Origin: Escherichia coli
GTDB taxonomy: Bacteria > Pseudomonadota > Gammaproteobacteria > Enterobacterales > Enterobacteriaceae
Assembly (NCBI RefSeq): GCF_013315695.1
Contig: NZ_CP054353.1
DNA: 64,000 nt
Reading direction: 5' to 3' (one strand)
Below, one piece after another: positions 3,623-27,692 of the stretch. The notes beneath the pieces were generated by a model. The model ran no database searches and was not told the origin of the DNA. It saw only the letters and a program-made list of their open reading frames with translations. The position numbers were made by a program, and so were the translations under genes. Each line of letters starts with the position of its first letter. The stretch's first letter is position 1.

Positions 3623-3656
3623 AAAAAAATACCGACCCGGGTACAGGTCCCAGGTC
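3623..3656 (-). terminator. Intrinsic terminator within the greA leader (GraL-type attenuator)
   Basis: Minus-strand RNA GACCUGGG-ACCUGUA-CCCGGGUC (8-bp stem with one G.U) followed by GGUAUUUUUUU; lies between the greA promoter region and the greA start codon. Confidence 0.6.
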
Positions 3657-3775
3657 AGCTACAATTCACATTTTGATAGTCATTTTACCCTGAAGTTCCC
3701 GAAGGGTCATCGTTTACTTTATAGGGCGTTGCGCCGTAGTATGACGGCTCGATTCCAGGTTGTTAGCGCGAGATT

Positions 3776-24476: not shown

Positions 24477-25126
24477 TCAGCCAGTACCAGCACGCGGGAA
24501 ACCAGCTTATCAATGCCGCTCGCCGCTTCTGCAATGTTCTGCGCCAGCATATATGCCGGGGTGGTGACAATCTTATTGTCTTCATCAACCACGATATCAT
24601 CGACAGGACACGGCACATGCTCCGCGCCCATCTCTTCCAGCACTTCTGCGGTATCGATATCAGTACCGATGGTCAAACGCAGCGGGAAATCGAAAATTTT
24701 CGGCAGCATCGCCGGGGCAATACACATAAAACCAAGCGGTTTTCCGGCCTGATGCATCGCTTGTGCCAGCGCCTTTAATTCACGGTCAACGGTGCATTCG
24801 CGACCAAGACTGGCAAAATTGCTTAAATTCTTCGCCGCGCCAAACCCCCCCGGCACAATCAACGCATCCAGTTCAGCGGCATCGGCCTGAGCCAGAGGAC
24901 GGATTTCACCGCGCATTATTCGTGCCGCTTCAATCAGCACATTGCGCGTTTCCGTCATCGCTTCGCCCGTTAAATGGTTGATAACATCAACCTGCTGCTT
25001 ATCCGGTGCAAAGCAGACCGCCTGCGCACCGCTGCGTGAAATAGCTAACAACGTCAACACCGCTTCATGAATTTCAGAACCGTCATAGACGCCGCATCCG
25101 CTCAGAATTACGCCAATTTTCTTCAT
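24473..25126 (-). CDS. elbB: DJ-1/PfpI-family glyoxalase-like protein ElbB (YhbL)
   Basis: Trimmed to [55 protein letters not shown]... (217 aa). Confidence 0.92.
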
Positions 25127-25243
25127 TGTGATCATCCTTTCGCAATTGACTGAAACACATTAATTTTTTTAATAAAAATGCTACGCATCACACATTTAAC
25201 TGATTCATGTAACAAATCATTTAAGTTTTGCTATCTTAACTGC

Positions 25244-25364
25244 GTGCGGCCTGAAAAACAGTGCTGTGCCCTTGTAACTCATCATAATAATTTACGGCGC
25301 AGCCAAGATTTCCCTGGTGTTGGCGCAGTATTCGCGCACCCCGGTATAGCCGGGGTCATTTTTT
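25244..25364 (+). ncRNA. arcZ: ArcZ small RNA (SraH/RyhA)
   Basis: Sequence GTGCGGCCTGAAAAACAGTGCTGTGCCCTTGTAACTCATCATAATAATTTACGGCGCAGCCAAGATTTCCCTGGTGTTGGCGCAGTATTCGCGCACCCCGGT.TAGCCGGGGTCATTTTTT recognised as ArcZ; ends in CCCCGG/CCGGGG hairpin plus U-tract; 3' end overlaps the arcB stop region convergently. Confidence 0.9.
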
Positions 25365-27692
25365 AGTGGCTTTTGCCACCCACGCTTTCAGTACTTCTAC
25401 GTCGTGACGCCACTCTTCTTTCATCTCTTCAATCCATTCACCGACGTTATCTTCCCAGGCGGGAAGGTCAGGAGACTGAATTTGCTGACCCAACTGTTGC
25501 AGATGGCGTAACCCCACTGACCCCGCCGCACCTTTAATTTTATGTCCTTCCTCAACAATGCCTTTTTTATCCTGCGCCGTCAGATTCGACTCCAGCACGC
25601 TAACATATCCCGGCATCATCTTCTCAAATACCGCTAACCCGTCGGTGATCAGCTTCGGTCCTACAAGTTCGAGATACTGTTCCAGCATGGGAATATCGAG
25701 CAATGCTTCTGATTTACTGTTCTCTTCTGTCGTCACCGTACTCTCCTCATCATCCTGGGTATCCCAGAATTTCTTGATCATCGCGGTTAGCGCCGGAACA
25801 GAAAGCGGCTTACTCAGCACATCATCCATTCCAGCATTGAGGTACTCTTGTTTGTCTTTCAGCACGTTAGCGGTTAAGGCCACCAGCGGTGGTAAATCCT
25901 CGCGCGGATAACGCTTCGTCAGTTCACGAGAGATATCCAGCCCGGTCATATCTGGCAACTGAATATCCAGCAACACTAGGTCGTATTCGCCCGGTTTAAA
26001 CATCTCCAGCGCCGCCTTGCCGGTCATGGCGACATCAACGCTGTTACCTAACTTTTCCAGCACAGAGCGCGCGACAATCACGTTCAGTTCAATGTCTTCC
26101 ACCAGCAGCACATTCAGCGCCGGTAAAGGCATATCGTCTTCATCAAACGCATCATCAACCTCTTCTGCTACCGACGGTGCGTGGATCGTCAACGTAAAGG
26201 TTGAACCTTTGCCCTGTTCGCTGGTAACCGTAATATCGCCGCCCATATTTTTCGCCAGACGACGAGAAACGGCCAGACCAATACCGGTACCGGTGGCAGG
26301 TTTACCACCATGACTGTCTTTCACCTGGTAATACATGGCGAAGATTTTATCCAGCTCATCCTGCGGAATGCCGATACCAGAGTCTTCCACTTCAAAATGC
26401 AGCATATCGCCTTCATCGTAGCGCACGCGCACGGTAACCTGGCCTTGCTGAGTGAATTTGACGGCGTTACTGATGAGGTTCCACAGGATCTGCCGTAAAC
26501 GCGTCCCGTCGGTAATGACCTGATGCGGTAATGGCAGCGTCGGCTCCAGATTAAAGCGCAATCCTTTTTGTTGCGCCTGCAAGGCGGAGAGATTTTCCAG
26601 ATCGGCAAGGAAACTGGTGAAATCAACCGGCTGATTATCAAGCTGGACCTTGCGCCGTTCCATCTTATCCATGTCGATAATATCGTTGAAGATATTCCCC
26701 AGCGTGACAGCCGATACATGGATGGTTTTGAGATATTTTTCCTGCTCGGCGGTGAGTTCAGTATCCAGCAGAATGCGGCTCAGGCCGACGATACCGTTCA
26801 GCGGTGTACGCAATTCGTGACTGATGGTGGAGATAAACGTCGTTTTGTCGCGGCTGGCGCGTTCAAGCGCATCCTGATACCGCTTACGCTCGGTAATGTC
26901 GCGACCAAAGCCCATCAAACCGTGACGTTTACCCACGCGGTCGTAGTACGGCACTTTACGAATTTCAAAGCAGGCTTTGCGTCCGTCGGGATAATCCAGC
27001 CACTGCTCATAGGTCAGTGACACATTATGACGGAACACTTTTTCATCGGTTTCAATGACTTTCGCAGCGGCTTCCGGTGAGTAAACATCAGCAGGTTTCA
27101 GGTGAACCAGTTGTTTTTCGCTTTTTCCGGTCAGCAGCTCCATCGCGCGGTTACAGCCGGAAAACTCTTTATCTTCGTTACGATAAAAAACCAGGTCGGG
27201 TGAAGCGTCAAGGAAGGAACGTAAGAATGAGGATTGCTGCTCGAGCTGAATTTGTGTCTCTTCGCGCTCTTTGATTTCAATTTTCAGTTGGCCGAAGGTT
27301 TCCTGCAGTTCTGCTTCCGCTTTTTCACGAACGGCGATTTCCTGATTTAGCTGGGCAATATTATCTTTTAACTGAACGTTGAGGCTCAAATCGCGCTCGC
27401 GCATCTCCTCCAGTTTTTGCACCAGTCGTGACAGACGTTGTCGTGACTCCTCCAGTTGCTCGACGACCACCGATAGAAAGTAGACCGCCCACGGCGTAAT
27501 CAGCAAACCAAAGAAGATAGAACGAATAACATCAATGCTTTCGACCTGGCCATGCAGCACCATGGTTACCGCCATTTGTACCACAATGGCAAGAACGACG
27601 AGGGCCAGCGCCAGCAACATTGAGAAGCGCACCAGACCTAACTTCATCATCAGGTCAACATAATACTGCGCCAGCAGACGAATTTGCTTCAT
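25356..27692 (-). CDS. arcB: Aerobic respiration control sensor kinase ArcB
   Basis: 778-aa ORF MKQIRLLAQYYVDLMMKLGLVRFSMLLALALVVLAIVVQMAV...; PAS, HisKA (ISHELRTPLNGI), receiver and HPt domains. Confidence 0.97.
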   Translation of the reverse strand: MKQIRLLAQYYVDLMMKLGLVRFSMLLALALVVLAIVVQMAVTMVLHGQVESIDVIRSIFFGLLITPWAVYFLSVVVEQLEESRQRLSRLVQKLEEMRERDLSLNVQLKDNIAQLNQEIAVREKAEAELQETFGQLKIEIKEREETQIQLEQQSSFLRSFLDASPDLVFYRNEDKEFSGCNRAMELLTGKSEKQLVHLKPADVYSPEAAAKVIETDEKVFRHNVSLTYEQWLDYPDGRKACFEIRKVPYYDRVGKRHGLMGFGRDITERKRYQDALERASRDKTTFISTISHELRTPLNGIVGLSRILLDTELTAEQEKYLKTIHVSAVTLGNIFNDIIDMDKMERRKVQLDNQPVDFTSFLADLENLSALQAQQKGLRFNLEPTLPLPHQVITDGTRLRQILWNLISNAVKFTQQGQVTVRVRYDEGDMLHFEVEDSGIGIPQDELDKIFAMYYQVKDSHGGKPATGTGIGLAVSRRLAKNMGGDITVTSEQGKGSTFTLTIHAPSVAEEVDDAFDEDDMPLPALNVLLVEDIELNVIVARSVLEKLGNSVDVAMTGKAALEMFKPGEYDLVLLDIQLPDMTGLDISRELTKRYPREDLPPLVALTANVLKDKQEYLNAGMDDVLSKPLSVPALTAMIKKFWDTQDDEESTVTTEENSKSEALLDIPMLEQYLELVGPKLITDGLAVFEKMMPGYVSVLESNLTAQDKKGIVEEGHKIKGAAGSVGLRHLQQLGQQIQSPDLPAWEDNVGEWIEEMKEEWRHDVEVLKAWVAKATKK

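Follow-up and report, generated by a model that had tools for sequence, protein, structure and literature searches.

An intact arcZ small RNA gene convergent with arcB and overlapping its 3' end in Escherichia coli

The arcZ locus and its agreement with K-12

In the window examined here, the whole 64-kb stretch of E. coli DNA that was analysed, the genes elbB and arcB are separated by a gap of 229 bp (25127-25355), the right-hand 112 bp of which belong to the gene for the small RNA ArcZ, earlier named SraH or RyhA (Table 1). The elbB gene is transcribed away from arcZ, arcZ and arcB stand tail-to-tail, and the RefSeq annotation of identical loci concurs on arcB. The remaining ~117 bp of the gap are AT-rich and must hold the divergent promoters of elbB and arcZ. 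Within the short stretch shared by the two convergent genes, the arcB stop and the two codons before it are complementary to the ArcZ tail UCAUUUUUU, the Lys-Lys codons lying opposite its U-tract, and in K-12 the overlap is likewise 9 bp (3350689-3350697). A position convergent with and downstream of arcB, with the usual overlap of ~10 bases, is the synteny found for ArcZ, and the overlap of the gene with the arcB 3' end is an arrangement already described (PMC11331407).

Table 1. Features of the elbB-arcZ-arcB region, in positions of the window.
Feature	Position	Strand	Basis or remark
elbB, glyoxalase ElbB, 217 aa	24473..25126	-	NCBIfam NF008747, 355 bits; RefSeq concurs
Putative sigma-70 promoter of arcZ: GTAACA (25209-25214), 17-bp spacer, TATCTT (25232-25237)	25209..25237	+	Read by hand; same as K-12
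arcZ gene, full-length sRNA, 121 nt	25244..25364	+	RF00081 match and K-12 b4450 alignment
RNase E site GA|UUU, cut 25308/25309	25307..25311	+	Fits RN|WUU consensus
Processed active form, 56 nt	25309..25364	+	Length computed; equals the length in PMC11331407
Conserved seed block CCCUGGUGUUGGCGCA	25312..25327	+	Directly after the RNase E site; block given in PMC11331407
Rho-independent terminator: stem-loop 25338-25356, loop AUA, then CA and U6 (25359-25364)	25338..25364	+	Terminator scan and MFE fold
A in place of K-12 C, first terminator-loop base, ArcZ nt 103	25346	+	Alignment; on the arcB side the position is 3' UTR
arcZ/arcB overlap, 9 bp	25356..25364		arcB TGA (25356-25358) and AAA AAA Lys-Lys codons (25359-25364)
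arcB, sensor histidine kinase, 778 aa	25356..27692	-	ORF; NCBIfam NF008302 equivalog, 1483 bits against a cutoff of 838, full length

Assignment of the RNA rests on two comparisons. A run of Rfam 15 over all 64 kb at the gathering threshold returned two matches, one of which places the ArcZ family, RF00081, at 25244-25351 on the plus strand with 118.6 bits against a gathering score of 66 (E 1.6e-26) and with complete coverage of the model (positions 1-106 of 106). The match stops at 25351 because the Rfam model ends inside the terminator, and the 3' end at 25364 was taken from the K-12 annotation. The K-12 arcZ gene itself (b4450, 121 nt, NC_000913.3 3350577-3350697) aligns to 25244-25364, which begins GTGCGGCCTGAAAAACAGTGCTGTGCCC and ends CACCCCGGTATAGCCGGGGTCATTTTTT, with 120 of 121 nt identical. 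The other Rfam match in the window is the Enterobacteria greA leader (RF01769) at 3624-3745 on the minus strand, with 125.8 bits against a gathering score of 60.

These comparisons bear out most of what the initial annotation had read from the sequence. It had offered a covariance-model search as the test that could refute ArcZ, which the interval passed by a wide margin when the search was run, and alignment to K-12 arcZ as a further check, in which all 121 nt aligned with a single mismatch at 25346. Its statement that the ArcZ sequence and terminator hairpin are intact is borne out by the agreement of the K-12 alignment, the terminator scan and the MFE fold. The convergent placement of arcZ and its overlap with the arcB 3' end likewise hold, as does the claim that arcB ends at 25356 with the last bases of ArcZ in its stop region: ArcZ runs to 25364 on the plus strand, and the TGA of the minus-strand arcB gene is the complement of 25356-25358.

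An ATG-initiated open reading frame of 62 codons (25178-25366, plus strand) in the mechanical ORF list spans ArcZ, and the region could on that ground be taken to code for a small protein. We ruled this out as an exceedingly improbable reading, given that the 62-aa product has no NCBIfam family match, that the frame starts 66 bp ahead of the position to which the 5' end of ArcZ is mapped and is thus not on the sRNA transcript, and that conservation of the ArcZ 3' half extends to third-codon positions and to paired stems, a pattern of the RNA type rather than the coding type.

The locus shares with K-12 the 121-nt length of ArcZ, elbB on its left, convergent arcB on its right, the extent of the overlap, the RNase E site, the seed and the terminator stem, and differs from it within the RNA only in the terminator loop, which has C in K-12 and A here (25346). 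Three SNPs separate the two strains over 271 aligned bp, at 25181, 25346 and 25392. The last of these lies in arcB and is synonymous (GTA/GTG, a Val codon). The first, a C/G difference in the promoter region that elbB and arcZ share, 63 bp before the arcZ +1, is the sole difference from K-12 in the upstream 113 bp, leaving the arcZ promoter the same as in K-12 except at -63.

More broadly, the 321 bp around arcZ recur with 100% identity in several complete E. coli chromosomes and have a match in 5416 of 5426 complete genomes, where the locus is chromosomal. Few E. coli carry the allele at 25346: of 5414 complete genomes of the species, only 26 match the window exactly over 25305-25364, the others showing 95-99% identity, which over this 60-nt query amounts to 1-3 mismatches. 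Among the matches listed, the exact hairpin of the window is also found in E. albertii, Enterobacter cloacae, E. quasihormaechei and Atlantibacter. Since the loop sequence is free to vary among species, and other genera have this very loop, A25346 is probably neutral, a lineage marker, with an effect on ArcZ termination or stability as the lesser possibility.

Processing site, terminator and putative promoter of ArcZ

Cleavage of ArcZ by RNase E gives a 56-nt 3' product, and it has been proposed that this processing frees the seed (PMC11331407). At the level of sequence, the window has the RNase E site, the seed and the 56-nt segment by which a member of the ArcZ family would be recognized. 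The MFE fold of full-length ArcZ (-42.3 kcal/mol, z = -2.4) locks the seed into a long helix formed with the 5' portion of the molecule, which agrees with the published idea that processing frees it.

The terminator stem has 8 base pairs, 6 of them G-C, and is followed by CAUUUUUU; the terminator scan gives CATTTTTT downstream of the hairpin at 25338-25356, with the T-run at 25359-25364. ArcZ thus ends in a Rho-independent terminator and U-tract, which in class I and class II sRNAs form the module that binds Hfq. The hairpin is variable in sequence and stable in form across the order: 40 variants occur in at least 121 Enterobacterales loci, all of which fold with stems of 5-7 bp and with compensatory changes, including the stem pairs CCCGG/CCGGG, CCCAAC/GTTGGG and CCCAGT/ACTGGG in the Enterobacterales hairpin comparison.

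Upstream, the putative arcZ promoter ends 6 bp before the +1 G at 25244 and is weak, agreeing with the consensus at 8 of 12 positions. A sigma-70 scan requiring at least 9 of 12 positions listed no promoter in 25050-25500, since a score of 8 falls just below that threshold; the assignment of GTAACA and TATCTT as the arcZ promoter is our own and is suggested by the position of the K-12 5' end. Binding of ArcA at the arcZ promoter has been reported (PMC11331407), and a search of 25127-25243 with the simple consensus GTTAATTAAATGTTA, allowing up to 3 mismatches, gave no ArcA box.

The overlap and the ArcB C terminus across Enterobacterales

To place the overlap in a wider setting, one genome per species was scanned for exact matches to a 23-nt ArcZ core, GTGTTGGCGCAGTATTCGCGCAC, giving at least 120 loci that span Enterobacteriaceae, Erwiniaceae, Yersiniaceae, Morganellaceae and others, a sample limited to exact matches of the core. 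Across these genera the 5' half of ArcZ varies freely and the 3' half is kept at the nucleotide level. Orthologous loci in Salmonella, Citrobacter, Klebsiella, Yersinia and Photorhabdus resemble the window in the 3' 56-nt part, the terminator and the convergent arcB, and in Salmonella and other Enterobacterales orthologues the ArcB Lys-Lys-stop is complementary to the U-tract. ArcZ of other Enterobacterales differs from that of the window in its 5' half, in its loops, in T-runs of 5-9 T and in an overlap of 9-11 bp as against 9 here, and ArcZ of Pantoea and Mixta differs in having no overlap with arcB.

The arcB 3' end could be called at 115 loci, the window included, and among the matches listed 97 of these, from several families, have an arcZ/arcB overlap of 9-11 bp. 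The overlap is reduced to 0-2 bp at 8 of the 115 (Pluralibacter, Morganella and some Pantoea) and replaced by a gap of 4-10 bp at 8 others (Pantoea and Mixta), again among the matches listed. With ~15% of the sampled species having little or no overlap, the overlap is not required for the existence of ArcZ.

Three loci in this sample are unusual in other ways. Pantoea sp. 1.19 has an overlap of 23 bp, the largest in the sample of matches listed, its arcB frame passing through the T-run into the ArcZ terminator hairpin to give an ArcB C terminus of ...EKNDPGL. In Kluyvera genomosp. 3 (CP022114.1) the arcB frame is broken in the last ~150 codons and the Lys-Lys-stop and the ArcZ terminator are kept; the break could be a pseudogene or a sequencing error. 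A contig labelled Chryseobacterium sp. 18061, Bacteroidota (CACSKA010000008.1), carries an arcZ-arcB locus of Enterobacterales type, Pluralibacter-like and with an ArcB end of ...AWVASR, and is probably contamination or a mislabelled assembly.

The overlap and the end of the ArcB protein go together. Among the matches listed, ArcB ends in Lys-Lys-stop (AAA AAA TGA/TAA) at 96 of the 97 loci with an overlap of 9-11 bp and in something other than Lys-Lys at 17 of the 18 loci outside that range, and the lineages that have lost the overlap (Pantoea, Mixta, Pluralibacter, Morganella) have lost the Lys-Lys tail too. The match between the Lys-Lys codons and the U-tract suggests an RNA-imposed constraint on the last two residues of ArcB, or the reverse. 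That the Lys-Lys-stop is imposed by the ArcZ U-tract and not by a need of the ArcB protein, with a dual-use segment of 9-11 bp locking arcZ to arcB across Enterobacterales, is a plausible proposal that falls somewhat short of being probable.

Regulation between ArcZ and arcB

Five secondary sources report that ArcA-P represses arcZ at low oxygen and that ArcZ lowers arcB mRNA, a loop with an input to RpoS control (PMC11331407, PMC4152358, PMC3937726, PMC3634460, PMC4281340), all five citing Mandin & Gottesman 2010 for this regulation. According to the initial annotation, it is the antisense arrangement that allows ArcZ and arcB mRNA to influence one another; mutual regulation is indeed published, and on the antisense mechanism the statement was firmer than the sources. 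Any genetic work on the locus has to reckon with the shared bases: deletion of arcZ would clip the arcB stop codon, which is why Bak et al. worked with a mutant in the -10 element of the promoter (PMC3937726).

How arcB transcripts end bears both on the mechanism and on what the interval is. With a hairpin at 25338-25356 directly after the arcB stop on the opposite strand, the interval could be mainly the arcB 3' UTR and terminator, its likeness to ArcZ being incidental. Read on the minus strand, however, that hairpin is preceded by an A-run and followed by GCGCGAAUAC, without a U-tract, and the minus-strand scan of 25050-25500 found no intrinsic terminator between the arcB stop and elbB. The full-length covariance-model match is moreover on the plus strand, and K-12 annotates an ncRNA here, which according to the literature has been detected experimentally (PMC11331407). 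With the strand wrong for the U-tract and RF00081 matching on the plus strand, we ruled out an interval that is only arcB 3' UTR and terminator, a reading to which we give almost no credence. What the minus-strand fold (z = -1.8) shows is limited to the ArcZ hairpins in antisense, the first of which lack a following U-tract. An imperfect and weak minus-strand stem followed by UUUUU, opposite ArcZ nt 11-15, was considered as an arcB terminator and is not convincing.

Taking the interval as arcZ, the negative result for an intrinsic terminator on the minus strand suggests that arcB transcription very probably runs on, in antisense, across some or all of arcZ. This matters for the overlap, as an A/U gene overlap of 9 bp is too short and would not form a stable duplex, so that meaningful pairing needs an arcB transcript running through arcZ; the overlap cannot be the whole story of regulation. 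A literature search on a role for RNase III gave nothing specific to the ArcZ/arcB duplex.

It could be argued from the same shortness that the overlap has no regulatory role, being a by-product of compact convergent genes that share an A/T run, with ArcZ acting on arcB in trans or indirectly, if at all. Nine A-U-rich base pairs are too few for stability, ArcZ is kept in Pantoea, Mixta, Pluralibacter and Morganella with an overlap of at most 2 bp, and Pectobacterium carotovorum has no arcZ/arcB overlap (PMC11331407). The published wording is also cautious, the role of arcB asRNA being "speculated" (PMC11331407) and the mechanism one that "remains to be determined" (PMC4281340). Against this stand the frequency of the 9-11 bp overlap among the matches listed (97 of 115 loci, in several families), the antisense transcripts that are likely where no arcB terminator is detectable before arcZ, and the report that ArcZ destabilises arcB mRNA via its 3' end (PMC4152358, PMC3937726, PMC4281340). 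We consider an overlap without any role unlikely, while giving it real weight.

A regulatory overlap would have a parallel in GadY/gadX, where an sRNA gene likewise converges on a protein gene, to whose 3' end it is complementary, and where effects on mRNA stability are reported (PMC4152358, PMC4281340). The difference is that ArcZ acts chiefly in trans, as an Hfq sRNA with a large regulon, and that any cis effect on arcB is secondary. In E. coli K-12 and Salmonella, ArcZ is known to bind Hfq, to be processed by RNase E and to regulate rpoS and other targets (PMC11331407), and from the identity of 120 of 121 nt we infer that Hfq binding, processing and target regulation hold in this strain as well.

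The course of events at this locus would then be as follows. Transcription would run from G25244 to the intrinsic terminator at 25338-25364, and a Hfq-guided RNase E cut of the 121-nt transcript at 25308/25309 would leave a stable 56-nt 3' fragment whose 5' seed would pair in trans with targets such as rpoS, flhDC, mutS, sdaC and tpx. At low oxygen ArcB would phosphorylate ArcA, and ArcA-P would repress arcZ; ArcZ in turn would lower arcB mRNA, closing a mutual-inhibition loop that sets oxygen sensing against the RpoS stress response. Any arcB transcripts reading through the arcZ terminator may add cis-antisense pairing much longer than 9 bp. Taken jointly, that 25244-25364 is the Hfq-dependent sRNA ArcZ, convergent with arcB and part of a mutual-inhibition loop, is an explanation in which we have very high confidence; no observation speaks against the identification of the RNA.

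In conclusion, the ArcZ gene and its placement are already known, and this is an ordinary locus with 99% identity to the reference. Two side results are of mild note, the coupling of the ArcB Lys-Lys-stop to the U-tract and the absence of arcZ from the RefSeq annotation of an identical locus: at NZ_CP042896.1 572926-576246, RefSeq/PGAP lists elbB and arcB and the arcZ ncRNA is missing. The curated K-12 record does list arcZ, and flagging the gene here fills a real gap in automated annotation. It is useful to know that arcZ is intact in this strain; apart from getting the annotation right, the result is of minor importance. Three sRNAs activate RpoS translation. ArcZ, one of them, ties oxygen and redox sensing by ArcB/ArcA to motility, biofilm formation, mutagenesis and the general stress response.
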